A stretch of DNA of 34,346 nt from an uncultured Candidatus Peregrinibacteria bacterium (lineage in GTDB: Bacteria; Patescibacteriota; JACMRA01), in NCBI GenBank assembly GCA_937127165.1, contig CAKZLR010000018.1:1-34346 (forward strand). Reading direction: 5' to 3'. Under the pieces are notes generated by a model. That model did not search any database. It was given only the letters and a program-made list of their open reading frames with translations, and was not told the origin of the DNA. The position numbers were made by a program, and so were the translations under genes. Each line of letters begins with the position of its first letter. Position 1 is the stretch's first letter. Positions 13,204 to 34,346 of the stretch are shown one piece after another.

Positions 13204-15156
13204 TTATTTTGAAACTGAATTAAGTATAATATGGTTTTCTATTTTGTTCAAGTTATTTTCGTCAATTTGTTCAACTATTTCTGGTCTTATTTCTTGCACA
13301 CAACTTGGTGCGGCTCTCAAAGAGCCACTAATAAATTGCAGAATCGCTTTGATAGGTAAGTTGATGTGCTCATATTTAGCATACTCTAGTTTTTCTGATA
13401 AAAATCTAGGTTCAATATTGTTGATTAAGATAAAGTTAATCAGCTCTAAGAACAGATCTAAAGTGTTTTGTAAATCTGGTGGTAAATCTCTACCTTTAAG
13501 AGATACAATCCTAGGACCCCTTGCATCATATGTAATCGTGAGCAACATATCCCCATAATCAGTAGTTTTAAGTAGCTGTTCTAATTTTAGCACATACTTA
13601 GATAAAGAACCTAAGTTAGTTGCCAAAATTTCAGGTTTGTATTGGTGATGAGTGGTGTTTGGGGTTATTTGATAGTTTTCTGGTGGAAGTTTAGATTCTA
13701 ATTCCTGTTGTTTTTTAATAGCTTGCTTAAGAGTATTTTGTAATTCTAAAATGATAGAGCGTTGAGAACTGGCCTTTTGAATCAAAATTTGTATATATTG
13801 AGGCAATTCTTTTGAATCTAAATCGACCCATTCAAGCTTATTACTATTTGCAAAATATTTAGAGTCTATTAAAAACCCTAAGTGTAAAGTGGATTCTTTT
13901 GTTTCTTTAATTTCTGTTGTAGAAACCAAACTAGAAGTAACAGTGCCATAGAAATCAAAATATTCGTTCAGAAAGCTTTGTAAAACCTCTTCAGATTCTT
14001 TATTTTCTTTAAAATTGGTTGATGGAAGCTTAATCACACCTTCAGACCGTTTGTCAATAGCTATCAAATTCTTATTAAAATTTATTATCAGAGCATTCAA
14101 AACTATTTGTGATTTTGGCTCTATTGTTGATTTTTCTCGTTGGTTGATTGTAGCTAAAAGATCTGACAATTCGACAACTGACAACTCATTTTCGTTCCAT
14201 AATTTTTCTTCAGTTTCTTTATTTCCGTCAGTTAATCTATAAAGAGTTTGATTTTTTTCTGGTTGGACATCAATATCAACCACTTGTAAAATTTTAGATT
14301 GACCATCAATTGTTACTCTAACAAGTTCACCAATTTGAAACATCGGTTCATCTATCTTAGGTAGATCGGTTTTGGTAATTACAGGGTGATTATCGTCTTG
14401 TGAAGAAGTAAATTGTGTAGTATCAATAGTGGTTGGGGGTGAGTATTGATCTCTATCACTCCAAACTTGCCAAGGTTGACTTTGAGGGAAAAGTAAAATA
14501 CTACTATTCCTTCTAGGAATTAATTCGAAGGGGCTTTGTAGGATTGTATTTTGGTCAAAAATCTTATAGAGATCTGTACCATTTTTAATTTCTCCTGTGT
14601 TTTTGTTATACCAAAACTCGAAAGATTTTGGTCTAAGGTGTTTTTTAATTTTTTCCCAGGCCAAGCAAGGACCTTTTTCTTCGGCTAACGATTCACTGGC
14701 TCGATAGGCTTTATTACTAATGAAGTTACCAATATAATTAATTATATCTAACTCGTTGATATGTTTGTTTTGTTCTAGAAAATCATCAAAATCAGCTATT
14801 CCAATAGCAATTTTTCGATATTGAGCGACTACAGCCAAAGCCTCAGGACTAAATTGAATTTTATCAAGTAAGGCATCCAAAAATCTAACAGCTGTCTCGA
14901 TTGTATCTTGTAAGAGACTTTCATCCAAAGCTTTTTGATTATCTAAATATTTACACAGTAGGATATCTCCATATGTGGTAGCAGGTTTAGTTTGGGTTTT
15001 GTCCTGATATAAAAGCTCTAATGTCTTGTTGCTAACAACAAAAAGTCTTCTGGCGTGTAATACTTCTGTATATTTCTTCTCCCAAAATTTTCTCAATTCC
15101 GGAGTACTCTCAGTTTCCGCTGCCAACTTAAGCAGTCTTTCCAAGACAGATGACAT
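13204..15156 (-). CDS. Degenerate class II ribonucleotide-reductase-like multidomain protein (RNR remnant, SH3-like, pseudo-Nudix, coiled coil, TSCPD-like)
   Basis: TAVRFLDALLD, YRKIAIGIAD, AYRASESLAEEKGP and RRN match the NrdJ/NrdA barrel C-terminal part; no NPCxE finger loop. Confidence 0.7.
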   Translation of the reverse strand: MSSVLERLLKLAAETESTPELRKFWEKKYTEVLHARRLFVVSNKTLELLYQDKTQTKPATTYGDILLCKYLDNQKALDESLLQDTIETAVRFLDALLDKIQFSPEALAVVAQYRKIAIGIADFDDFLEQNKHINELDIINYIGNFISNKAYRASESLAEEKGPCLAWEKIKKHLRPKSFEFWYNKNTGEIKNGTDLYKIFDQNTILQSPFELIPRRNSSILLFPQSQPWQVWSDRDQYSPPTTIDTTQFTSSQDDNHPVITKTDLPKIDEPMFQIGELVRVTIDGQSKILQVVDIDVQPEKNQTLYRLTDGNKETEEKLWNENELSVVELSDLLATINQREKSTIEPKSQIVLNALIINFNKNLIAIDKRSEGVIKLPSTNFKENKESEEVLQSFLNEYFDFYGTVTSSLVSTTEIKETKESTLHLGFLIDSKYFANSNKLEWVDLDSKELPQYIQILIQKASSQRSIILELQNTLKQAIKKQQELESKLPPENYQITPNTTHHQYKPEILATNLGSLSKYVLKLEQLLKTTDYGDMLLTITYDARGPRIVSLKGRDLPPDLQNTLDLFLELINFILINNIEPRFLSEKLEYAKYEHINLPIKAILQFISGSLRAAPSCVQEIRPEIVEQIDENNLNKIENHIILNSVSK

Positions 15157-16360: not shown

Positions 16361-19300
16361 TTAGTTATTTAAAAAATTAATTTTGGATTGTTGTTGATCT
16401 AACTCTTGTTTTCTTTGCAAAAGTTGTTGTCGTTTTTCAGTCACCACCTCAGGGTCGGCATTTTGTACAAAATTGGGATTTTGTAATTGGTTTTGTAAAA
16501 ACTCAATTTGAGTTTCCAAGTCTTTTATAATTTTGTTAGTTCTGTTAACTTCAGTTTGCTTGTTTGGGATATAAGCTAGAATATCCAAAGAGTATTCATA
16601 ACCCTCTTTTTGAACACTATACAATCCCTGCTTTTGTTCTGGTACTATCTCGCTTCTGGTTGTTATCTGGATAAACTTACTGTATTTATTAAGCAATACT
16701 GATTGGGAATATACTTGAATTGATTTGGCAGGATCAATAGCAAACAAACCTCGAGTGGAACGGAGATCTTGAATAAATCTAATAATTGCAGCAAACTCTT
16801 CAGCTTGAACCTGACTATTAGGGTTTTTTGACCACAACTGGCGGTACTGCTCATTTCTCTCGAGAGCAAAAGCTAAAAGGCTTGTTTGGCCAAAAAATTC
16901 CGACCACAAAACTTCTGTTTCAAAAGGTATAAACGGTGAAACTGTGATGATAAATTGCTGAAATAGACTTTTTGCAAAAGCAACCTGTGTTTCGTCTGTT
17001 TTTAGATACTCAATATACCAATCAGCAAAATTGTCCCACAAAAAGCCATACAAAACATCAACCGAGTGAGCTAGTTCGTAGTTTTGTAGATTATGCTCTA
17101 AGTTATCTTGTAAATCTAAATATTTTTGCAAAATCCACCACGAAGCGGAGGCTAGTGATTCTGGTGATAAAAATATTTCGTTTGATACTGGGTTTGTTTT
17201 TAAGAAGGTAGATTTAGGTTTTTCTAGAGCTGTTGTAACTTTTTCTTGCCAATTTCCACTTTTGAATTCTAAAAAACGAGCAACATTCCAAATTTTATTA
17301 CCAAAGTTCCGGTATTTCTCCATTAAACGATCGGCTAAATTACCACCAAATCGCATATTTCTTCCCGGAATCATACCACTCAGCATTGATAGTCTAAGGG
17401 AGTCACTAGAAAATTTAGCGATAGCTTCTCCGGGCTCTAAACCATTTTTCAAAGACTTACTCATTTTACGACCTTTTTCATCCAAAATAGTAGGAGTAAT
17501 TACTAGATTTTCAAAGGGAACACGATTAGTAAAATATTTACCCAAAGTGATCATTCTAACTATCCATAAATAAAAAATCTCTTTGGCCGTAACCATGGTT
17601 TGGGTTGGGTAAAATTCTTCAAAATCAACTTTTTTAGCCAAATTTTGTTCCATTAGTTGGTTGTTAAACTCAGTTCTAAAATTAGTAGAAAATTTGTTTA
17701 GCACAAACTCAATACTTTCTTCAAATCCATTAATTATTTTGCCTTTAACATCTTTTAAATCGACCCACTTAGTAGTTTGATAATCCGCGCAAACACCCTC
17801 TTTTTCGGACTCAGTTTCTACATAGAAAAGATTAGATTCAAGTCGAATGTTTTGCAATTCGTTATTTTTGTAAAAATTGAATCCAAGAAAAATTTTACCT
17901 ACAAAATCCAACTTAGTTATTTCGTTCCTACTTATACCGGTTTCTTCTTCAAATTCTCTTAAAAGGGTTTTTTGAGCAGTTTCACCAAGCTCTAACTTAC
18001 CACCAACTAAATGATATTCAGCTTTTTCTTCACTCACATTTCTGAGTATATCCCAGTTTATTTTGGGAAATAGTAGTTTTTTGGTTTTAGGATTATAAAT
18101 AATTGCATGAGCCCCAAACCGGTTTTGGAAATGCTGGTCCAAACTAATATATTTGGAAAAAGTATAAAAGTAGTTACTATATAAAATATAGTCTTCAATT
18201 TCGGGAAAATGTGGGATATTGAAATGAGCTCGATTATCAAAAATAAACCGCTTGCTGGTTGGCAACCGAGATATTATTTGATTAAATTGCTCAAACGGAA
18301 CAATCTGATCGTCGGTGGAGTGATAGACAAAAATTTGCTCACAGTTTTCTTTGATTAAATCAAGTTCGGTTTGAATCTCAAAAGTATAAGCATCAGTGCA
18401 AGCTGCCACCAAATGAAGTTGCTTCACTTTGAGAGAGTTTTCGGATAGATATTTGAGTAAAAAGTTACCACCAAGACTGTGACCAACTAAAAATAGTTCA
18501 TTTTCTGGATCAATTTGAGCAATATATTTTTCAAACCAAATCTTCCAAGCTTCATAATTGGCATTTTGTTTGTTTGGCATTTGTGGGTAAAACACTTCTA
18601 TTCCAGCACTGGAGAGTTTGGTAAACAAGTTGATTTTCCAGTCGATTTTTTGCTGGCGAATGTCTATCTCTCTTTGCTTCAGCTCCTCCAGCATTTCTTG
18701 GTCAGTTTTAAAAGCATCTCCACCACCAACTATTACTACAGTTTTTTGAGGTTTAACTGTTTCCACGAAATCCAAAGTAGATAGCGGCCAAAGCGAGGAT
18801 GAAAACCAAGTATCTAAAATTTTGCTTTCTTGTACCCAGTTTCCAGGTAAATCAGGCTTATTTGGACTAACTTGGAATTTGTGCCTAATTTCAGGATTTT
18901 TCAACCACTCTTGATAACTAAAAAATTTTTTTTCTGGATTGGTGTCTAAATTATACCACACAGGAATTTTATGACCCCAGGTAAGATCTCGAGAAATACA
19001 CCAATCAAGAACATTTTGGATAAAATTTTGACCTCTTTGTCTAAATTCACTAGGATAAAAATTAACCTCATCTAAACCTTTAAGGGTTAGTTTTTGTAAG
19101 TTGGTTTTTTTGCTAAACAACTTGTGAATATCCTCAAACTTGTCCAGAATTTGACTTTCTGGTAGTATTTCAAGTAATTTATCTTTACCTGCCCAGCCCC
19201 AGCTGCAACCAATAATTTTGGTTTTGTCCATAAAGTTCTGTAATTCAATCACATCATCTTTAGTGTCAGTAAAATAGTAAACTTGTGTGGGAGATATACC

Positions 19301-19924
19301 CCAATCTTTACAAACTTGAGTGATTTTTTCCTCCTTGGAGTGGTTATCCTCTCTACCTAAAATGTGAGTGAAGTTTAACTTACAATTTCTGATTTTCGGT
19401 AAAATTAACAACTCTTTTGAAGAACTAGAAACAATTGCAAGTCTTGTGTTTGAGATTTTAGCAATTTCGTTAACGAACCCTTCAAATAGACAAAACTCTT
19501 TATTAGCCATGTACCTTATAAAATTCCAACTGGCAACAGCCTGCTGTTCAAACTCTTCTTGGCTCAGTCCATGATTTTTATGATGTCTGGGTTTATCAAA
19601 ATATTCATCTCTCATTTCCTTAGCTTTTTTGTAGTCACCACCGGCTCTCAGCTCAGCCCAACAAGCTAAATTAGCTTCGTCGGAATCGGCTAGTACTCCG
19701 TCATAATCAAAAATTAAATACTTAGTTTCTGCACACGAAGAATGATCAAACTCTTTGTGGTAGCTGAGAAAAAATTCATCACTAATCAACGGTTCAATAA
19801 CTGTTTTGGATCTTTCACAAATAGACACATTATGTTCATAGTTCCAGTCCACTTGGAATTGTGTAAACCGTTCTTTTAATTCAGAAACCCTTTTTTGATA
19901 GTCTGCCTCGCTAAAGTTATTCAT
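16361..19924 (-). CDS. valS: Valine--tRNA ligase, C-terminal half only, with inserted HAD, alpha/beta-hydrolase and Nudix domains
   Basis: HNVSICERSKTVIEPLIS, DWCISRDLTWGHKIPVWY, LDTWFSSSLWP, FYPT, KMSKS, NKIWN, anticodon domain, C-terminal coiled coil (LQNPNFVQNA); no HIGH motif or CP1 editing core. Confidence 0.88.
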   Translation of the reverse strand: MNNFSEADYQKRVSELKERFTQFQVDWNYEHNVSICERSKTVIEPLISDEFFLSYHKEFDHSSCAETKYLIFDYDGVLADSDEANLACWAELRAGGDYKKAKEMRDEYFDKPRHHKNHGLSQEEFEQQAVASWNFIRYMANKEFCLFEGFVNEIAKISNTRLAIVSSSSKELLILPKIRNCKLNFTHILGREDNHSKEEKITQVCKDWGISPTQVYYFTDTKDDVIELQNFMDKTKIIGCSWGWAGKDKLLEILPESQILDKFEDIHKLFSKKTNLQKLTLKGLDEVNFYPSEFRQRGQNFIQNVLDWCISRDLTWGHKIPVWYNLDTNPEKKFFSYQEWLKNPEIRHKFQVSPNKPDLPGNWVQESKILDTWFSSSLWPLSTLDFVETVKPQKTVVIVGGGDAFKTDQEMLEELKQREIDIRQQKIDWKINLFTKLSSAGIEVFYPQMPNKQNANYEAWKIWFEKYIAQIDPENELFLVGHSLGGNFLLKYLSENSLKVKQLHLVAACTDAYTFEIQTELDLIKENCEQIFVYHSTDDQIVPFEQFNQIISRLPTSKRFIFDNRAHFNIPHFPEIEDYILYSNYFYTFSKYISLDQHFQNRFGAHAIIYNPKTKKLLFPKINWDILRNVSEEKAEYHLVGGKLELGETAQKTLLREFEEETGISRNEITKLDFVGKIFLGFNFYKNNELQNIRLESNLFYVETESEKEGVCADYQTTKWVDLKDVKGKIINGFEESIEFVLNKFSTNFRTEFNNQLMEQNLAKKVDFEEFYPTQTMVTAKEIFYLWIVRMITLGKYFTNRVPFENLVITPTILDEKGRKMSKSLKNGLEPGEAIAKFSSDSLRLSMLSGMIPGRNMRFGGNLADRLMEKYRNFGNKIWNVARFLEFKSGNWQEKVTTALEKPKSTFLKTNPVSNEIFLSPESLASASWWILQKYLDLQDNLEHNLQNYELAHSVDVLYGFLWDNFADWYIEYLKTDETQVAFAKSLFQQFIITVSPFIPFETEVLWSEFFGQTSLLAFALERNEQYRQLWSKNPNSQVQAEEFAAIIRFIQDLRSTRGLFAIDPAKSIQVYSQSVLLNKYSKFIQITTRSEIVPEQKQGLYSVQKEGYEYSLDILAYIPNKQTEVNRTNKIIKDLETQIEFLQNQLQNPNFVQNADPEVVTEKRQQLLQRKQELDQQQSKINFLNN

Positions 19925-20133
19925 AGTAATGAAATTACTAATAATAGTTTCTGCTTAAACCAAATAGTTTTGTCAAACGTTAAGTTACAATCGACTATCT
20001 GAATAATTAAAATGACTTGAAAAGGATTGCAAACTGAGATATCTTATGGTGGAGTATTTATTTATAATTAATTTTCTTAGAACTTTCTTTTTCTATGTTT
20101 TATAGAAAATTTATAATTTATAAAATTATAAAA

Positions 20134-20634
20134 TTAAGCAAAGACAACCTCGTTTTTAGTTTGGAAAAAATTATGAAAATACTCTTCTGTCCAATCCAAA
20201 ATATCTAAATAAAAACTTAAATACGGATCAAATTCATAAATTTTGTAGTAATGATTCTTAATCATCCATTGGATGACCCGGTAATCGTACTGAGACAGTA
20301 CATTTTGACTAAATTCTTTACTATATATTTCTAATTTCTTCTCTCTGAATTTTAGTGTTAGAAAGGCTTTCTTTTGTTCCCAACTAGCGAATTTTTCTTC
20401 TGGGTTTGCAGGGTCAAATTTTTCTCGTTCATAAACAAATTGAGGATCCATTTTTTGGTTGAAAAAATAAAGTGGGTGGAGTAATCTATGCAAAGTTCTA
20501 CCAAAAAAATAGGAATACCCCTTATAATCTTTATTTCTTTTTTTAGCTTCTTCGTATTGTATCCAAGTAATCGTTGATATATACTCATACATGTCAATAT
20601 ATTGCTCTTTCAAGGATAAAAAATGTTTTGACAT
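20134..20634 (-). CDS. Hypothetical protein (aromatic-rich, 166 aa)
   Basis: Open 166-aa frame with ATG, co-oriented with grpE and valS-C; no recognisable motif. Confidence 0.6.
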   Translation of the reverse strand: MSKHFLSLKEQYIDMYEYISTITWIQYEEAKKRNKDYKGYSYFFGRTLHRLLHPLYFFNQKMDPQFVYEREKFDPANPEEKFASWEQKKAFLTLKFREKKLEIYSKEFSQNVLSQYDYRVIQWMIKNHYYKIYEFDPYLSFYLDILDWTEEYFHNFFQTKNEVVFA

Positions 20635-21450: not shown

Positions 21451-22770
21451 TTAAGATTCGACTTGGCTAATCAAAATTTTATTGATTTCAGGGAAGTCGG
21501 CAAGTCTTTGTTCACAGTTATTTATAAAGTGACTGGCAAAGTCGAGAATAGTTTGTTTTGAACGATAATTTTTGGTCAGGGTAATAATTTGGCATGTTGG
21601 ATATTTTTTTCTGAAATCTAAAATATTTTTTAAATAAGCTCCTTGAAATTTAAAAATTGACTGGTCATCATCTCCGACTACCATCAAGTTCGGTCTATTA
21701 TTAGTTAGTTTTGTGTCAACTAACATGTCAATAAGTTTAGTCTGCACACCACTAGTGTCTTGAAATTCGTCAACCAAAATATATAAAAACTGTTCTTGAT
21801 AATTGTATCTAAGCTCTTTGTAAGTTTCAAAAGCTTTTAACACTTCAAAAAGCATATCCTCAAAATCAAATAATTTAGACTGGTGCAAACCTTCTTGATA
21901 CTTTTTATAAATTCTAGCTAAAGAGCGGTATTTTTTATGGTTAAGGTCGGCTTTTAACCTATATTTTTTGTCTTCATCAACTTTACAAAAACTGTTTCTC
22001 CATGAAGTTAATTTAGTTGTTGAAGGATTTTGTTGAGCTTCAATTTCGTCCACAGTCTTTTGCAAACTCTCTATTACTAGTTTTTTAAGGCTATAATTTG
22101 GCTGTTTTTCGTCAAAGTTAATCTGTCTCAGGGGTTCAATCAAGTCTTGGCGAGCTTTTGATAGTAAAACTTTATTTATTTTCCCAACAAAAAAGTCTTT
22201 GATAATATTTCTAGCCTGAGAAATAAAAGTTTCGTTGTCGTCCAAAATTTGTTCAAAATCTTCGGGGGTTATACCTTCTTTTTTTAGATCCCTAATTCTA
22301 GATCTGATAGAGTCTAAATAAGTCCAACCTTCTTTAGAATTGTGTTGGTTGAGAGGATCATCATGGTCAAAAGTATTAAAAATACTTTGCAAAATTTCAA
22401 TTGAAGCTAAGTCATCAGCCGGCATATACTTAGCTCCGGAAAAAAAATATTCGGGGTTATGACTAATCACTTCGGTTCCAAAACTATGAAAAGTGTGAAT
22501 ATACACTTTGCTAGCCTGTGATCCAATAATCTTGATTAATCTTTCTCTCATATTTACAGCCGCTGAGTCTGTGAAAGTAAGACAAAGAATAGACTCTGGC
22601 AAAGTATCTGTTTCCCTGAGAATGTTGGCTACTCTCATGCTAAGTAATTCTGTTTTACCTGTCCCCGGACCAGCTACGACCATCACTGGACCATCGATTG
22701 TGTCAACGGCTTGTCTTTGTTCCGAGTTAAGCCGTTGATATTTTTGCCAGAAAATTCGGTTAAAATTCAT
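21451..22770 (-). CDS. UvrD/PcrA/Rep-family helicase, N-terminal half only (motifs Q to IV)
   Basis: LNSEQRQAV, AGPGTGKT, LTFT, TFHSF, DEFQD, VGDDDQSIFKFQGA, LTKNYRS; stops about 35 aa after motif IV, motifs V and VI absent. Confidence 0.88.
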   Translation of the reverse strand: MNFNRIFWQKYQRLNSEQRQAVDTIDGPVMVVAGPGTGKTELLSMRVANILRETDTLPESILCLTFTDSAAVNMRERLIKIIGSQASKVYIHTFHSFGTEVISHNPEYFFSGAKYMPADDLASIEILQSIFNTFDHDDPLNQHNSKEGWTYLDSIRSRIRDLKKEGITPEDFEQILDDNETFISQARNIIKDFFVGKINKVLLSKARQDLIEPLRQINFDEKQPNYSLKKLVIESLQKTVDEIEAQQNPSTTKLTSWRNSFCKVDEDKKYRLKADLNHKKYRSLARIYKKYQEGLHQSKLFDFEDMLFEVLKAFETYKELRYNYQEQFLYILVDEFQDTSGVQTKLIDMLVDTKLTNNRPNLMVVGDDDQSIFKFQGAYLKNILDFRKKYPTCQIITLTKNYRSKQTILDFASHFINNCEQRLADFPEINKILISQVES

Positions 22771-22788
22771 ACTTTAATTTATATGACT

Positions 22789-22817
22789 ATGCTACAAATA
22801 GTAAATCAGTCAGTCAA
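22789..22817 (-). promoter_or_regulatory. Sigma70-type promoter for the helicase gene
   Basis: Minus strand TTGACT-17 nt-TAGCAT, 18 nt before the ATG at 22770. Confidence 0.6.
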
Positions 22818-23201
22818 GACAAAGTCAAACACTATCCATTAAGATCAAATCAAGATTGATTTGATATTTGGTCTGGTTATGTACTAATTTGATTTCTAAA
22901 GAAAAACTGGTGTAATAAACTTGTTTATTCAAAATTTATTTAATTTTTACAAGTTTTACTTGTTACTTACAAGTTTTATTTAAAACTACAACAATAACAA
23001 TTGTTACCAATTTAATCAAAAAAAATTTTCTAATTTAATTCTTGTCAATTTTTAAAAAAATACTAGGTCCGGGTCTTACTTACTATTCTCACTATTTTTT
23101 GTGAGAACTTAATAAAAGACGATTTTTAAATTTTAAAATATATAATTATATAATATGAAAACTCTTCAGAGTTGTATTTGAAATTATAAAAACATTTATT
23201 C

Positions 23202-23870
23202 CTATTTACAACTAACATAACTCATAGACACTCTGTTAGATCGTGTAATCATAAAAAAATGATTTCAGCAATATCCTTAGGATGCATAAACTTTGAAGTA
23301 TCAATTTTTGTTTGATTATCTAGGTTTTTAAATAAATTTGTATTTGTAGTTGCAGGATAAAAACCCATTACACGAATATTGATTCTTTTTTCCAACCTTC
23401 CCTGAAACCAGATATTCCGTATTTATTACTCATATAAACAGACTCTCTTGGCTTACCATCATATGGTGTTCTACCGGCTGAAGATACATTAAGGATTGTA
23501 CCATAATTTTGTTCTTTGAAAGTTGGCAAAAATACTTGTGTCGTGTATATAGTACCCATTAGATTTATTCTAATCATTTTTTCTATATGATCAGGATTTT
23601 GTTTGTCTAGATCACCAGTGTAATACACACCCGCATTATTTATCAAAACATCAACATTACCAATTTCCTTACGAGCACTTTCTAATATCGGATAGAGGCG
23701 ATCAGCTTCATATTCTAAATTGTATTCTATATTTTTAAGATTTGGATGTGTTATATTAACAGTATTTCTGCTAAGATTAAAGACTAGCCACTGCCTTTTT
23801 AAACACTTTTTTACAACTTCTAGTCCAATTCCAGAACTACCCCCAGTGATAACAATTCTTTTAAAGAAGA
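23202..23870 (-). pseudogene. Short-chain dehydrogenase/reductase (SDR) pseudogene
   Basis: One frame reads KRIVITGGSSGIG...DVLINNAG...YMSNK but has no ATG/GTG/TTG upstream of the Rossmann motif; continues after a frameshift near 23385 (IRVMGFYPATTNTNLF...MHPKDIAEII) and a second shift at the homopolymer near 23255. Confidence 0.85.
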
Positions 23871-24033
23871 AATTTACTAAAAATAGTGCAAAAGCACATG
23901 CATGAAGAATAAAAATAAAATGGTCAAATAAATCATTCTGAGTTGTAATAACAATTTAAAATATATTATAACTTTCACAAATATTATTTCATTTATTAAG
24001 TATTGTTTATTATATAATCCTGTTAATAACAGG

Positions 24034-24067
24034 AAATTTTAAATATGAAAAAATTTTAAATATGAAA
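24034..24067. repeat. 17-bp tandem duplication AAATTTTAAATATGAAA x2
   Basis: 24034-24050 is identical to 24051-24067. Confidence 0.8.
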
Positions 24068-24389
24068 AATATATATTTTTGTCTTTTAATTACATTATTA
24101 TACTAGTTACCTTTAGATTTATTTCTCCTGCTTTTGTTACGTTACAAATGATTCCCCTAAAAGACTAAAACTTTGACTAAGAAGATTTATTTTTACAGAT
24201 GCTCTTTTATAATTTGTTCATCATACAAACCTCGAAGAAATTAGTGCTATTTGTCATAATAAATACAATTTGATTCAATATTTTATACATCTAACAGAAA
24301 AATGTTAAACTAACAAAGTTGAACAATAGATCTGAAAGACCTCTTTTGCAAGATTAAAATAAAAAGTATTATTTTAGATATATAAACAT

Positions 24390-24418
24390 TTGACCTAAAA
24401 GCAGTCTTTTAGTAAAAT
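24390..24418 (+). promoter_or_regulatory. Sigma70-type promoter for the PilB/GspE gene (near-leaderless)
   Basis: TTGACC-17 nt-TAAAAT, 10 nt before the ATG at 24429. Confidence 0.65.
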
Positions 24419-24428
24419 GTAATGTTGT

Positions 24429-31610: not shown

Positions 31611-31620
31611 TCTGTTGCAT

Positions 31621-34346
31621 ATGAACCAAGACTCAAACCAAAATAATCAAGTTGACAATATTGAGACTCAATCTACCCATCCTTATAAGGATATCGAGAC
31701 TTATTGGCAGAAACTTTGGTTTGAAAATAACCTTTACCGGGCCGTTGATTTTGATGATCGTCCTAAAAAATATATTTTAACCGAATTTCCTTACCCATCG
31801 GGTGTTAGTTTGCATATTGGTCATGTTTTTCGTTATACAGTACCGGATGTATACGCTAGGTTTTTAAGAATGAATGGTTATAACGTGCTTTTTCCGATGG
31901 GTTGGGATGCTTTTGGTTTACCCACTGAGGAGCGAGCTAGGAAGGAAGGCAAGAATCCCAAGATCATCACTAAAGAAAACATTGCTAACTTTAAGCAACA
32001 AGTTCTGCGAATGGGTTATGGTTTTGACTGGGACAGAGAGTTTTCTACAACTGATGAAAATTATTACAAGTGGACTCAGTGGATTTTTGGCGAGTTTTAT
32101 AAAGCTGGTTTAGCCGAACAAAAAGAAACTGAAGTGTGGTGGTGTCCTGAAATGGGGACTGTGTTGTCTAACGAAGAGGTGTTAGATGGTCCAAATGGAA
32201 CCAAAATTAGTGAACGAGGTGAGTATCCGGTTTATCGCAAAAAGATGAAGCAGTGGGTTTTGAGGATGCCAGAATATGCCGAAAAATTACTTAGCGGTCT
32301 AGAAGAAACTCATTTTCCAGAACATGTTAAGGAGATGCAACGAAATTGGATTGGTAAAAGCGAAGGTTGCACGGTCAGATGGGAAGTAGAAACAACTACA
32401 AAAAGCAGAAAGCAGAAAGCAAAAATTGTAATTTTACACGGTTTTCGAGGTAGTTCCCAGAGTATTTATATTCCTTGGCTTAAATCTAGGTTAGAAGACT
32501 TTGGTTGTGAAGTAGTGGCTTTGGATTTGCCTAATTTTACAGATCCAGACGAACAAGAATGTGTTGATTTCGTTTTAAACTCAGTTAAATTTGGCAACAA
32601 CACAATCATTTTAGGTCATAGTCTTGGTTCTGTACTAGCCCTCAAAGTTTTAGAAAAACTAGATCAGCCGATTTTAGGTTTGGTTACCACTGGCGGCTTT
32701 GTGTCTCCAGACTTTTTGGACAAAAACATCAATGTGCGGCCGTTTACCCATAAGTGGAATTGGAATTTTGACTTTGCAAAAATCAAGGCGAATACCACTT
32801 TTGTTAAGTGTTTGCAATCTTCTTCTGATCCAGTTATTTCTACCGCTCAAGCTCAGGCTTTGGTGCAAGCTGTGGAAGGCGAGCTGATAATTGTGGAAGC
32901 TAAAGGACATTTTAGTGATCAGATTGAACCTAGTGTTTGGAGTGTCTTTGAGCAAGTTTTACGAAAGGAAGCACTCCACCTTACAAGCATCTCTCAAGAG
33001 GAAAGTTTGATAGTTGAAACCTTTACTACCCGAGTTGATACCATCTTTGCGGTTACTTTTTTGGTGTTGTCTCCCGAGCATCCTTTGGTTTTACAACTAA
33101 CTATCGAGGAAAACTTACCAAAGGTACGAGTTTATTTGCAAGAAGTGCAAAACAAAAGTGACCGAGAAAGACAAATTGGGGCTGAAAAAACTGGAGTCTT
33201 TACCGGGAGTTATGCTATTAATCCAATTACAAAAGATAAAGTGCCAATTTGGATTAGTGATTATGTACTTGGCAGTTACGGTACTGGAGCGATTATGGCG
33301 GTTCCGGGGCACGATGAGCGAGATTTTGAGTTTGCCCAAAAGTTTGGGCTGAAAATTTTAGAAAACGTAAAACCCATAAGTGGAGAAAAAACTAGCAAAG
33401 TTTTTACTGATTACGGCGTTTTATTTAACTCAGGAGAGTATTCCGGTTTAACCAGTGAGGAGGCTAAAGAAAAATTAATCCAAAAATTGGAAGCTGAAGG
33501 CAGAGGTAAGCGAGAAATCAATTATAAATTCCGTGATTGGGTCTTTAGCCGTCAGCGATATTGGGGTGAGCCATTTCCGTTTGAGTATATTAAGATTAAA
33601 GATGGTTTAGTAGATTTTGAGAAACTAGACGAACAACTAAAAAACTCAGGTCGGATTGGTGTCGTTAACTGTGTTGTTGTTAATTCCCAAGGTCAAATTT
33701 TGCTTCAAAGGAGATCGGCGACTTTTGACTTGATTGGCGGGCATATAGGGGAAGGTGAAACTATTTCGCAGGCGATGCAACGAAAGATTAAAGAAGAGAT
33801 TGGTTGTGATCTAGGTCAAGTTTTGTATTATTTAGGCTTTACTGAAATGAATCTTAGTGAGGATAATAAAAAACTGAATTTTGTTTTTATAGTTACAGTT
33901 AAACATGAGCCAAAGATTCAAAAACCAGAAAAAGTTAGTGAGATGATGTGGGTCAAGGCTGACCAGATTTTAAATTTTGTTGTTCCTCAGTCTCAATATA
34001 CAGTTTATTTTCCTAGCTGGCAACAAAAAGATTTTGTGAAAGAATTTATAGCACAAAATAGAGATTCTTATATTGTTGATGTTTTGTCACAGGCTTTTGA
34101 TTGGATAAACAAAAATTTTTCGGGGTTATCTTTGACCGAAATTGACGGCGAGCTCCATAAGATCAGACTTCTTGATACTACTGAACTACCTTTAATTTTG
34201 CCGGATGTAGAAGACTATTTGCCGTCACCAGAAGGCCGATCTCCTCTTGGCAAGGTAGATTGGATAAACATTCGAGATGAGCAGGGTAGGGTGATTGGTC
34301 GACGAGAACCAGACACCATGCCTAACTGGGCTGGAAGTAGTTGGTA
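31621..34346 (+). CDS. leuS: Leucine--tRNA ligase, runs off the window end, with inserted alpha/beta-hydrolase and Nudix domains
   Basis: Not in the ORF track (no stop in window). Manual translation: FPYPSGVSLHIGH, PMGWDAFGLP, YYKWTQWIF, MQRNWIGKSEG, FTTRVDTIF, YGTGAIMAVPGHDERD, RDWVFSRQRYWGEP, REPDTMPNWAGSSW. Confidence 0.97.
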   Translation, partial: MNQDSNQNNQVDNIETQSTHPYKDIETYWQKLWFENNLYRAVDFDDRPKKYILTEFPYPSGVSLHIGHVFRYTVPDVYARFLRMNGYNVLFPMGWDAFGLPTEERARKEGKNPKIITKENIANFKQQVLRMGYGFDWDREFSTTDENYYKWTQWIFGEFYKAGLAEQKETEVWWCPEMGTVLSNEEVLDGPNGTKISERGEYPVYRKKMKQWVLRMPEYAEKLLSGLEETHFPEHVKEMQRNWIGKSEGCTVRWEVETTTKSRKQKAKIVILHGFRGSSQSIYIPWLKSRLEDFGCEVVALDLPNFTDPDEQECVDFVLNSVKFGNNTIILGHSLGSVLALKVLEKLDQPILGLVTTGGFVSPDFLDKNINVRPFTHKWNWNFDFAKIKANTTFVKCLQSSSDPVISTAQAQALVQAVEGELIIVEAKGHFSDQIEPSVWSVFEQVLRKEALHLTSISQEESLIVETFTTRVDTIFAVTFLVLSPEHPLVLQLTIEENLPKVRVYLQEVQNKSDRERQIGAEKTGVFTGSYAINPITKDKVPIWISDYVLGSYGTGAIMAVPGHDERDFEFAQKFGLKILENVKPISGEKTSKVFTDYGVLFNSGEYSGLTSEEAKEKLIQKLEAEGRGKREINYKFRDWVFSRQRYWGEPFPFEYIKIKDGLVDFEKLDEQLKNSGRIGVVNCVVVNSQGQILLQRRSATFDLIGGHIGEGETISQAMQRKIKEEIGCDLGQVLYYLGFTEMNLSEDNKKLNFVFIVTVKHEPKIQKPEKVSEMMWVKADQILNFVVPQSQYTVYFPSWQQKDFVKEFIAQNRDSYIVDVLSQAFDWINKNFSGLSLTEIDGELHKIRLLDTTELPLILPDVEDYLPSPEGRSPLGKVDWINIRDEQGRVIGRREPDTMPNWAGSSW

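Follow-up and report, generated by a model that had tools for sequence, protein, structure and literature searches.

Valyl-tRNA synthetase (ValRS) is regarded as a universal single-polypeptide enzyme, and it serves as a single-copy marker. In the 34,346-nt stretch of DNA analyzed here (the window), one open reading frame (ORF) carries ValRS sequence and lacks the front of the enzyme. This locus raises the question of whether valS is broken at this point or is divided between two genes. The preliminary description of the locus favored the second answer, with the N-terminal half of the enzyme encoded elsewhere, and this remains the best-supported reading on account of a conserved start point, complementary N-terminal halves, and matching tree positions.

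The ValRS frame begins behind the editing domain

The start codon of the ORF is an ATG at position 19924 of the minus strand (Table 1). By BLASTP, the sole part of a canonical 963-aa ValRS (P0018, the reference for residue numbers below) that aligned to the ORF was residues 413 to 963. The best PDB match was the Thermus thermophilus enzyme (1GAX), aligned at residues 368 to 474 and 474 to 850. Pfam detected pieces of tRNA-synt_1, Anticodon_1, and Val_tRNA-synt_C, along with HAD_2, NUDIX, and an alpha/beta hydrolase, and it found no N-terminal ValRS part in the ORF. The best NCBIfam model was the valS equivalog, of which only positions 460 to 858 of 860 were covered. The earlier claim that the gene starts after the CP1 editing domain is thus borne out by BLASTP, Pfam, and the NCBIfam coverage. 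Among the features that identify a valS product, the polypeptide contains KMSKS, the anticodon-binding domain, and the C-terminal coiled-coil arm, while the HIGH signature and the CP1 editing domain are missing.

The start of the similarity had been placed at about residue 29. The peptide YEHNVSICERS does occupy residues 29 to 39, but homology begins before it, with residues ~5 to 28 matching the end of a variable linker in unsplit relatives. For both this C-terminal half (C-half) and P0129, a stand-alone N-terminal half (N-half) discussed below, the top four NCBIfam models were valS rather than ileS, leuS, or MetRS. The valS cut-off (NF004349, 704 bits) was reached by neither, with 337 bits for the C-half and 291 bits for the N-half, as expected for halves that carry inserts.

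Table 1. Features of the valS locus, listed from the upstream spacer to the end of the gene
Feature	Position	Strand	Basis or remark
AT-rich spacer, 209 nt	19925..20133	-	Upstream of the valS C-half; holds TAA, TTGACA, and TATTAT
TTGACA hexamer	19971-19976	-	Sequence
In-frame TAA	19955-19957	-	10 codons upstream of ATG
TATTAT hexamer	~16-21 nt before ATG	-	Sequence
Putative valS C-terminal subunit gene	16361..19924	-	ORF list; 1,187 aa plus stop
N-terminal extension, aa 1-25	19850..19924	-	Derives from the terminal part of the variable linker in unsplit relatives
First ValRS core segment, aa 26-59 (DWNYEHNVSICERSKTVIEPLISDEFF...)	19748..19849	-	82-100% identity across five C-halves; aligns from reference residue 413
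HAD-family hydrolase insert, aa 60-272	19109..19747	-	Pfam HAD_2, residues 70-226, E 1.8e-10
HAD motif I, FDYDGV	19694-19711	-	
Second ValRS core segment, aa 273-390	18755..19108	-	Reference residues 455-568; 1GAX residues 368-474
DWCISRD motif, second core segment	18986-19006	-	
LDTWFSS motif, second core segment	18797-18817	-	
RBBP9/YdeN-like serine hydrolase insert, aa 391-595	18140..18754	-	Pfam Abhydrolase_1, Hydrolase_4, Ser_hydrolase
Serine hydrolase motifs	GHSLGG 18467-18484; HSTDDQ 18305-18322; NRAHFN 18218-18235	-	
Nudix insert, aa 596-762	17639..18139	-	Pfam NUDIX, residues 603-726, E 1.9e-10
Nudix box	17933-18001	-	
Third ValRS core segment with KMSKS, aa 763-900	17225..17638	-	Aligns to 1GAX from residue 474
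KMSKS, aa 820-824	17453-17467	-	Kept by all five C-halves
Anticodon-binding domain and C-terminal tRNA-binding arm, aa 901-1187	16364..17224	-	Pfam Anticodon_1 930-1071, Val_tRNA-synt_C 1124-1177

The start point is shared by related C-halves

The C-half set consisted of five members, the window ORF (P0001) and its closest database relatives, P0002 to P0005 (56 to 83% identity; 1,168 to 1,385 aa). All four relatives with at least 56% identity to the ORF have the same start and a homologous N terminus. Compared to P0001, the N-terminal extension was 80% identical in P0002 and 32 to 40% identical in P0003 to P0005. The core segments were the best conserved parts of the C-halves (71 to 100% identity). 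The nearest full-length proteins, P0006 and P0010, reached 53 to 54% identity over about one-third of the query. A scan of genome contigs using peptide words from P0006 returned mostly Saccharibacteria ValRS at ~30% identity and none from the split clade.

These data speak to the objection that the truncation is an artefact or decay, in which case the ORF would reflect misassembly at the junction or sequencing error, or would be what is left of a pseudogene. In favor of this, the window probably comes from a metagenome-assembled genome, and one relative (L022) has a valS broken by a single in-frame TAG. However, misassembly is ruled out because the start point is conserved in relatives, and the window's own protein was itself seen on two contigs. 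The 1,187 open codons retain all motifs, and the 209 nt upstream hold no ValRS similarity in any frame by tblastn. An alternative genetic code does not lengthen the frame either, as tables 4 and 25 leave the stop-to-stop frame at 16364..19954. We consider an artefact or decay very improbable.

The upstream region and the rest of the window

The in-frame TAA, described earlier as lying 30 nt upstream of the ATG, was found exactly 10 codons upstream, with no ATG, GTG, or TTG between it and the start codon. The TTGACA reported on the minus strand is present (19976..19971) but is unusable as promoter evidence, because it lacks a downstream -10 hexamer at a spacing of 16 to 18 nt and the scan counts do not exceed chance. 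The consensus promoter scan of the region did not call this hexamer and gave 6 promoter-like sites versus 5.7 expected. No recognizable promoter was found for the C-half gene. No Shine-Dalgarno sequence precedes it or any other gene of the window. A T-box or other leader RNA upstream was rejected, since Rfam at gathering thresholds returned only two tRNAs, both far from the gene.

As first described, the genes that lie upstream are unrelated to ValRS; on the same strand, they comprise a 166-aa ORF without a family, grpE, and a pcrA/uvrD-like ORF. The 166-aa ORF had no match in Pfam or NCBIfam and none that was convincing in the Atlas. There was no useful synteny between the window and 80 compared loci.

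As for the missing half, tblastn of the whole window with P0129, P0006, and P0018 detected no ValRS N-half in any frame, in agreement with the preliminary description. The matches obtained were weak (23 to 31% identity), paralogous, and confined to a leucyl-tRNA synthetase (LeuRS) gene at 31774-33588. On this basis, we rejected the idea that the window conceals an N-half, be it in a different frame or as a degraded remnant.

Stand-alone N-halves complement the C-halves

Five clusters of stand-alone N-halves were identified (P0129, P0132, P0127, P0149, and P0150; 387 to 400 aa), with 66 to 93% identity among themselves. The motif "...GY(I/V)PxK" lies a few residues at most from the C terminus of the N-halves, which falls at reference residue 401 to 404, and the C-halves begin in a complementary position, at reference residue 402 to 415. 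Truncation of the N-halves at contig ends is unlikely because independent clusters would not share one end. When aligned to 1GAX, the N-halves cover residues 35 to 334. Their invariant motifs, editing-domain motifs included, are PPPNLTG-LHAGHA (with the HIGH-type LHAGH), TVRPET, and G-G-LKITP. These HIGH-type and editing motifs are complemented by DWCISRD, LDTWFSS, and KMSKS in the C-half. Every catalytic motif looked for is present in one or the other of the two halves. At the level of the clade, two ORFs cover the whole enzyme and meet at one point, and the five N-half and five C-half clusters were not pairable one to one by identity patterns. Nor did the longest contig of any N-half cluster match that of a C-half cluster in length.

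In organisms with tiny genomes, the products of some split genes are rejoined by split inteins. The two ValRS halves could become one polypeptide in this way, or through trans-splicing. Neither a Hint nor an intein domain was found in the C-half by Pfam or in the N-halves, for which the precomputed Pfam assignment is PF00133 only. There is also no room for intein halves, because the N-halves stop 2 to 6 residues past a conserved helix and the first 25 residues of the C-half consist of ordinary linker that unsplit relatives also have. The window contains no Rfam intron family. Of the explanations considered, we regard such joining as the most remote.

The break lies in a variable linker and has recurred

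In unsplit relatives, the linker at the position of the break varies from ~13 to ~60 residues, and its last ~25 residues match the N terminus of the C-halves. A similar segment stands directly before (I/V)DWxYEHNV in unsplit P0011, P0024, P0006, P0009, P0125, and P0130. We placed the two halves separately in trees built with FastTree or quick IQ-TREE. For the N part, the unsplit row nearest to the P0129 clade (5 rows, support 100) was P0011. For the C part, the clade of P0001 to P0005 (support 100) grouped with P0006 and with P0011/P0024, the latter grouping having support of 89 to 90.

A second split pair was found, with P0128, P0136, and P0156 as N-halves and P0031 and P0243 as C-halves. In separate trees, both halves of this pair nest in the clade of P0010, P0020, P0052, P0050, P0056, and P0059. 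The 241 collected proteins include 24 with an end near residue 403 and 7 with a start near residue 410. A further end point lies at about residue 700, where 51 proteins stop, and eight stand-alone anticodon-domain proteins of 260 to 298 aa start at about the same residue. The break after the editing domain has arisen at least 3 or 4 times (AU p 0.0002).

Three hydrolase domains are inserted in the C-half

The C-half contains three inserted domains that the preliminary description overlooked. Together, they account for 585 of its 1,187 residues. The HAD-family domain sits between reference residues ~449 and ~455, and the serine hydrolase and Nudix domains (aa 391 to 762) sit exactly at the 474/474 junction of the 1GAX alignment. 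The Atlas clusters nearest to the HAD insert are free-standing HAD_2 proteins of ~200 to 210 aa (score 0.91); by sequence, this insert had no match in the PDB. The serine hydrolase insert matched RBBP9 (E 1.6e-5) and YdeN in the PDB sequence search, and the Nudix insert gave weak MutT matches. Across the C-halves, identity to P0001 was 57 to 81% for the HAD insert, 67 to 82% for the hydrolase, and 44 to 77% for Nudix.

HAD phosphatases carry motif I as DxDx(T/V), a Ser/Thr in motif II, and an acidic pair in motif IV. In the HAD insert, which is assigned to Pfam HAD_2, FDYDGV was present in all five C-halves, and AIVS and FTDTxxD were conserved in the alignment. The serine hydrolase insert conserves GHSLGG (GGSLGG in P0003), HSTDD, and NR(A/G)HFN, from which a catalytic triad can tentatively be assigned. 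The Nudix insert, also recognized by Pfam NUDIX, matched Gx5Ex7REUxEExGU in 5 of 5 C-halves. All five C-halves thus keep DxD, GxSxG, and the Nudix box. The three inserts hold intact catalytic signatures and would be predicted to be active enzymes.

This hydrolase content gives some weight to the idea that the ORF is a ValRS-derived paralogue that has taken on another function, such as acting as a tRNA-binding scaffold for its hydrolase domains, while a full-length valS elsewhere does the charging. Our view is that of the window, so the rest of the genome could hold such a gene, and the score below the valS cut-off also fits. However, the core segments are the best conserved parts of the protein, and the C-halves conserve KMSKS, DTWFSS, DWCISR, the anticodon domain, and the C-terminal arm. 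Complementary N-halves with intact HIGH-type and editing motifs occur in matching clades and would be purposeless without a C-half. Among proteins of 652 to 2,078 aa, no full-length ValRS was closer than 53 to 54% identity. We believe a paralogue of this kind to be unlikely.

Inserted domains also occur outside this protein. Other ValRS relatives carry GNAT, Vsr-type endonuclease, Ham1, HAD, hydrolase, and Nudix domains, and the LeuRS encoded in the window likewise carries inserts. Recent copying of inserts between LeuRS and ValRS was rejected, as their Nudix domains share just 23% identity over 115 residues. NCBIfam also holds an isoleucine--tRNA ligase family containing an N-acetyltransferase domain (NF040702), which, as here, combines a class Ia synthetase with an unrelated enzyme domain. 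It differs in host enzyme and insert, and the window protein (41.9 bits versus a cut-off of 1999) is not a member.

A proposed naturally split ValRS

We propose, with a probability of roughly 80%, that the ORF encodes the C-terminal subunit of a ValRS whose gene underwent natural fission, that the N-half is encoded elsewhere in the genome, and that the two halves associate. In this model, an ancestral one-piece valS would have broken within the lineage-specific, length-variable linker after the CP1 editing domain. The N-terminal subunit, of ~390 aa, would provide the editing domain and the opening half of the Rossmann fold, which includes the HIGH-type motif, and its gene would lie elsewhere in the genome. 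The C-terminal subunit would provide the remaining catalytic fold (DWCISR, DTWFSS, and KMSKS), the anticodon-binding domain, and the C-terminal tRNA arm. Since motifs of both pieces are required in the active site, the halves must associate if the enzyme is to work, and we infer that they form a heterodimer. The two ValRS proteins would associate noncovalently to charge tRNA-Val, like other natural split synthetases. The HAD, RBBP9/YdeN-like hydrolase, and Nudix domains would have been spliced in frame into two surface loops of the C-subunit, where they presumably have a role.

Our searches of openly available full texts turned up no account of a ValRS that is split in nature. A split of this kind would imply that two gene products, one bearing the editing module and the other the module for the tRNA anticodon, can together build the class Ia catalytic fold. 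It would also offer a natural system in which to study the cross-talk of charging and proofreading. Completeness and annotation pipelines can be expected to miscall split valS genes as partial or as pseudogenes because both halves score under the curated valS cut-off. The presence of three intact hydrolase domains in an essential translation enzyme, along with the LeuRS inserts, hints at an undescribed nesting of enzymes within synthetases in ultra-small genomes.

A broader reading is conceivable but doubtful. ValRS in this lineage, probably Patescibacteria, might be a modular multienzyme assembly with three recurrent break sites in loops (at reference residues ~110, ~405, and ~700) that give 2 to 4 separately encoded subunits, and these loops might also accept in-frame foreign enzyme genes. 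The C-subunit of the window would then be a working four-in-one protein in which the Nudix, HAD, and hydrolase domains are active and tied to aminoacylation, e.g., by clearing Ap4A-type by-products, nucleotides, or mis-made esters. The same might hold for LeuRS and perhaps for the PcrA-like and NrdJ-like genes nearby.

Comparison to other divided synthetases

The single-chain counterpart, T. thermophilus ValRS, resembles both halves in the order of its parts and in its motifs, with residues 35 to 334 corresponding to the N-half and 368 to 850 to the C-half. However, it is a single polypeptide of 862 aa, whereas here there are two genes and ~585 inserted residues. The LeuRS of Aquifex aeolicus is broken nearer the KMSKS region, not right after CP1. 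This enzyme is similar in being a class Ia, two-gene enzyme of the LeuRS/IleRS/ValRS group; according to PMC2377443, which cites Xu et al. 2002, its alpha and beta subunits come from two genes and the heterodimer is the active enzyme. Unlike the ValRS of the window, it is a different synthetase without inserted foreign enzyme domains, and its split is known from one hyperthermophile lineage, whereas the ValRS break is recurrent. In Nanoarchaeum equitans, according to PMC11392972, AlaRS-alpha and AlaRS-beta are encoded by two genes, and both subunits are needed together. It too is an essential synthetase split over two genes in a tiny genome, but it is class II, archaeal, and without inserted domains.

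Divided linkers are also tolerated in other settings. Two reports, on a split PheT of Mycoplasma pneumoniae (PMC12494982) and on engineered split orthogonal synthetases (PMC9974479), show that synthetases cut at linkers can remain functional. Those systems are laboratory constructs or transposon-derived, whereas the ValRS split would be a natural gene fission.

The valS reading frame encodes the C-terminal half of a ValRS

We studied the 5′ end of the valS C-half ORF, whose product is P0001, together with its upstream spacer (coordinates in the table below). As the preliminary description had it, YEHNVSICERS lies at residues 29 to 39 of the ORF, an in-frame TAA stands 30 nt 5′ of the ATG with no start codon between them, TTGACA occurs on the minus strand, and the genes further 5′ are unrelated: a 166-aa ORF without a family, then grpE, then a pcrA/uvrD-like ORF. 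By sequence inspection, there was no −10 hexamer 16 to 18 nt from the TTGACA, and a consensus scan found 6 promoter-like sites versus 5.7 expected, which is chance level. Thus, the TTGACA carries no weight. An alternative genetic code was rejected, as tables 4 and 25 leave the frame no longer.

Coordinates of the features in the window and in the two synthetases it encodes
Feature	Position	Strand	Basis or remark
valS C-half ORF	16361..19924	−	ORF list; 1187 aa, ATG start
Spacer upstream of valS C-half	5′ of ATG	−	Sequence; 209 nt
TTGACA	19976..19971	−	Sequence
HAD_2 insert	aa 70-226 of valS C-half		Pfam
Alpha/beta or Ser_hydrolase insert	about aa 436-569 of valS C-half		Pfam
NUDIX insert	aa 603-726 of valS C-half		Pfam
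166-aa ORF	20134-20634	−	Directly 5′ of valS C-half
PcrA/UvrD-like ORF	21451-22770	−	439 aa
ORF-poor region	22771-24428
Short-chain dehydrogenase frame	23371-23955	−	Open for 195 codons
Ribonucleotide-reductase-like (NrdJ-like) ORF	13204-15156	−	650 aa
LeuRS gene	31615-34344	+	Runs off window end
Ser_hydrolase/alpha-beta hydrolase insert	aa 271-440 of LeuRS		Between first Rossmann half and editing domain
NUDIX insert	aa 683-788 of LeuRS		After editing domain

In the C-half, Pfam identified tRNA-synt_1 in pieces, along with Anticodon_1 and the ValRS C-terminal arm. The truncation described earlier stood, but that account had lacked the three inserted domains (HAD_2, hydrolase, and NUDIX). Only residues 413 to 963 of P0018, a canonical 963-aa ValRS, were matched, in three blocks with the inserts between them. 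On the Thermus thermophilus structure (1GAX), the matches covered residues 368 to 474 and 474 to 850; the hydrolase and Nudix inserts fall exactly at the 474/474 junction, and the HAD insert lies between P0018 residues about 449 and 455. The best NCBIfam model was the valS equivalog (positions 460 to 858 of 860), with a score of 337 bits, under its cut-off of 704. No ValRS piece was found among the 25 other scanned window ORFs. The HIGH/CP1 half, already reported missing, was absent from the window by tblastn in all frames with N-half, full-length relative, and canonical ValRS queries; the sole matches were paralogous (23 to 31% identity) and lay in the LeuRS gene.

The truncation is kept in relatives

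Searching a collection of 5.8 billion proteins with P0001 gave 1,923 matches at an E value of ≤1e-3 among 6,847 candidates, of which the best 120 were listed. The closest four of these by BLASTP identity were P0002 (82%), P0003 (70%), P0005 (59%), and P0004 (56%). All four share the start point of the window C-half, a homologous N terminus, M..F.E..Y...L.EL...F...Q(V/I)DW(N/H)YEHNV, and the same three inserts. Because four relatives start alike, with a homologous N terminus, both a misassembly at the junction, raised earlier as a refuting explanation, and a private nonsense mutation are excluded. The window's own protein was also found on two contigs. The nearest full-length proteins among the best 120 of 1,923 (652 to 2,078 aa), P0006 and P0010, reached at most 53 to 54% identity, in matches spanning roughly one-third of the query.

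Stand-alone N-halves end where the C-halves begin

The first 480 residues of the unsplit relative P0006 served as the query against proteins of fewer than 793 aa (1,302 matches at E ≤1e-3 among 8,000 candidates scored; best 120 listed). Among the matches listed was a class of proteins running from residue 1 to a stop at 401 to 407 on P0018, with a conserved tail, ...LLEAGYIPKK, plus 2 to 6 residues. A search with one of them, P0129, gave 35 proteins with E ≤1e-60. Five (P0129 itself, P0132, P0127, P0149, and P0150) had full coverage and ≥66% identity to P0129; these are 387 to 400 aa long, all with the same end point. P0158 is a 278-aa fragment. Columns invariant in the N-halves include PPPNLTG-LHAGHA, TVRPET, and the G-G-LKITP motif; 1GAX is matched up to residue 334, and the best family is again valS. 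These end points place the end of the N-halves at the start of the C-halves, which we take to be about where the CP1 editing domain of ValRS ends.

The N-part tree had 141 rows, from 187 proteins covering the N-half profile; 46 distant ValRS of ~700 aa were left out and 4 of that family kept as the outgroup. The P0129 group formed a clade (support, 100) whose nearest unsplit row was P0011. The C-part tree (74 rows) held all of P0001 to P0243 whose match starts at or before residue 420 and reaches the C terminus. Here, P0001 to P0005 formed a clade (support, 100) that grouped with P0006 (support, 89) and with P0011/P0024, also unsplit (support, 90). A second pair, N-halves P0128/P0136/P0156 and C-halves P0031/P0243, lay inside one clade in both trees (P0010, P0020, P0052, P0050, P0056, and P0059; support, 99 and 98). 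With matching tree places, both of the two comparable N/C pairs are congruent. These positions are good, if indirect, evidence that the N-half and C-half sets probably belong together. Comparing five N and five C clusters by identity gave no one-to-one pairing. Nor did any N-half cluster have a longest contig equal in length to that of a C-half cluster. A scan of genome contigs with P0006 words, which suited the clade poorly, returned mostly Saccharibacteria ValRS at ~30% identity and no split-clade members.

Origin of the break and proposed enzyme

In unsplit proteins, the segment from GY(I/V)PxK to (I/V)DWxYEHNV is about 13 residues in P0018 and P0022 and up to about 60 in P0011, P0006, P0009, P0012, and P0125. 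Since its length varies and the last ~25 residues of the unsplit linker resemble the N terminus of the C-halves, the break falls within a linker that is expanded and variable. The "ends at 403" state changes at least 4 times on the N-part tree, with all 4 changes required by branches of good support, and 500 label shuffles never gave so low a count. A single clade of split forms was rejected by the AU test on a self-chosen 49-row subset of 15 split and 34 unsplit rows (delta lnL, 146; P = 0.0002). The trees indicate that fission at the residue ~403 site, or fission followed by re-fusion, is an event that took place several times.

We propose that the enzyme would consist of two polypeptides, an N-subunit supplying the HIGH-type motif and editing site and a C-subunit supplying DTWFSS, KMSKS, and the tRNA-binding domains. 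Because neither subunit alone could form the active site, the two would have to associate non-covalently; we infer both association and activity. No intein was found in the N-halves or the C-half, by Pfam domains or at the half ends. Published work describes the alpha-beta LeuRS of Aquifex (PMC2377443) and the AlaRS of Nanoarchaeum (PMC11392972) as natural split synthetases and reports that synthetases tolerate experimental splitting (PMC12494982). No natural split ValRS was described in the full-text literature searched, subscription-only journals and supplements being outside the search. Split synthetases are already known in nature, and a natural split ValRS would be new among that literature.

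Inserted domains

The inserts are kept almost as well as the core: identities to P0001 across P0002 to P0005 were 57 to 81% (HAD), 67 to 82% (serine hydrolase), and 44 to 77% (Nudix), compared to 71 to 100% for ValRS core segments. FDYDGV, GxSxG, a complete Nudix box, and KMSKS each occur in 5/5 C-halves. The hydrolase insert resembles RBBP9 and YdeN, and the Nudix insert has weak matches to MutT-type proteins. The HAD insert had no match in the PDB by sequence; its nearest neighbors in the Atlas are free-standing HAD_2 proteins of about 200 to 210 aa (score, 0.91; 187 shared features), in keeping with in-frame insertion of a whole gene. A synthetase bearing a foreign enzyme domain has a counterpart in the NCBIfam model for IleRS with a GNAT domain. 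A tie between the inserts and synthetase by-products such as Ap4A is speculation. In the alignment of relatives, motif I of the HAD insert is degenerate in full-length P0006 (FDWEGV for FDYDGV), which has no Nudix insert; in P0003, the ~700 loop holds a further Nudix-like insert.

Wider pattern of breaks

We classed 241 collected proteins by start and end on P0018 (table below).

Start and end classes of ValRS relatives
Class	Proteins of 241
Full length	65
Start 1, end about 700	51
Start 1, end about 403	20
Start about 116, end about 700	10
Start about 410, to the end	6
Start about 116, end elsewhere	5
Start about 116, to the end	2
Start about 116, end about 403	2
Other start, end about 403	2
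Start 1, end about 110	2
Start about 410, end about 700	1
Start 1, end elsewhere	75

Most members of the last class are from the distant ~700-aa family, and others are fragments. Of the 20 proteins running from 1 to about 403, P0186, with 29% identity to the query, may be a fragment that ends there by chance. An exhaustive HMMER search with the window anticodon-domain part (aa 901 to 1187) gave 2,133 matches at E ≤1e-3. Among the best 150 of these, 8 of 11 inspected N termini belonged to stand-alone proteins of 260 to 298 aa starting M..L(T/K)PASxWIL, the complement of the ~700 break. From the end-point classes and complementary pieces, we conclude that breakage of ValRS in this group recurs at three sites. 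The break loops and sites at about 37, 450, and 570 hold HAD, GNAT, hydrolase, Nudix, Vsr-type, and Ham1 inserts, differing by relative.

Proteins broken at about 110/116 and 700, for which complementary pieces exist on either side, include P0244, P0245, P0247, P0248, P0250, P0254, P0256, and P0261. P0032 to P0036, P0151, P0137, P0216 (residues 1 to 110 joined to a Ham1 domain), and P0118 (from residue 116 onward) are also broken there. The longest contigs of P0216 and P0118 are of equal length (62213). By sequence, some lineages appear to have ValRS in three or four pieces. At the locus of one relative (JAOZKL010000017.1, 4476-7412), valS (51% identity to P0006) is one frame in which a lone TAG takes the position of the conserved Glu of IEPLIS, so that gene calling gives two neighboring ORFs (444 and 512 aa). 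A nonsense mutation, a sequencing error, or read-through could account for the TAG; this locus is not a case of the relocated split of the window.

Other genes in the window

The LeuRS gene also bears foreign inserts; these are only about 23% identical to those of ValRS and therefore not recent copies. The PcrA/UvrD-like ORF covers about positions 1 to 300 of 725 in the PcrA equivalog. The next gene is grpE rather than a C-terminal helicase half, and this ORF may be another split gene. In the NrdJ-like ORF, NrdJ models match only aa 62 to 189 (model positions 296 to 421 of 606). The ORF lacks the N-terminal third of the family; aa 190 to 650 had no match, and the upstream gene encodes an RDD-family protein. 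From its first ATG, GTG, or TTG, the dehydrogenase frame, which lies in the ORF-poor region, yields only 92 aa, while the Pfam match begins at codon 32 of the open frame; it may be degraded or have an unusual start. The 166-aa ORF had no family in Pfam or NCBIfam and no convincing Atlas match, and its Atlas model was poor (pLDDT, 0.41).

No Shine-Dalgarno sequence was found in the 30 nt upstream of any of the 25 window ORFs. These regions are AT-rich, several have TATAAT-like hexamers 10 to 25 nt before the start, and TATTAT precedes the valS C-half start. This hints that window genes may have short or absent leaders. Three features suggest a source in Patescibacteria. The GC content of the window is low (27 to 40%). 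Some ValRS relatives are titled "Patescibacteria group bacterium," and the window encodes a protein of the T4SS-pilin family, which is typical of Patescibacteria.
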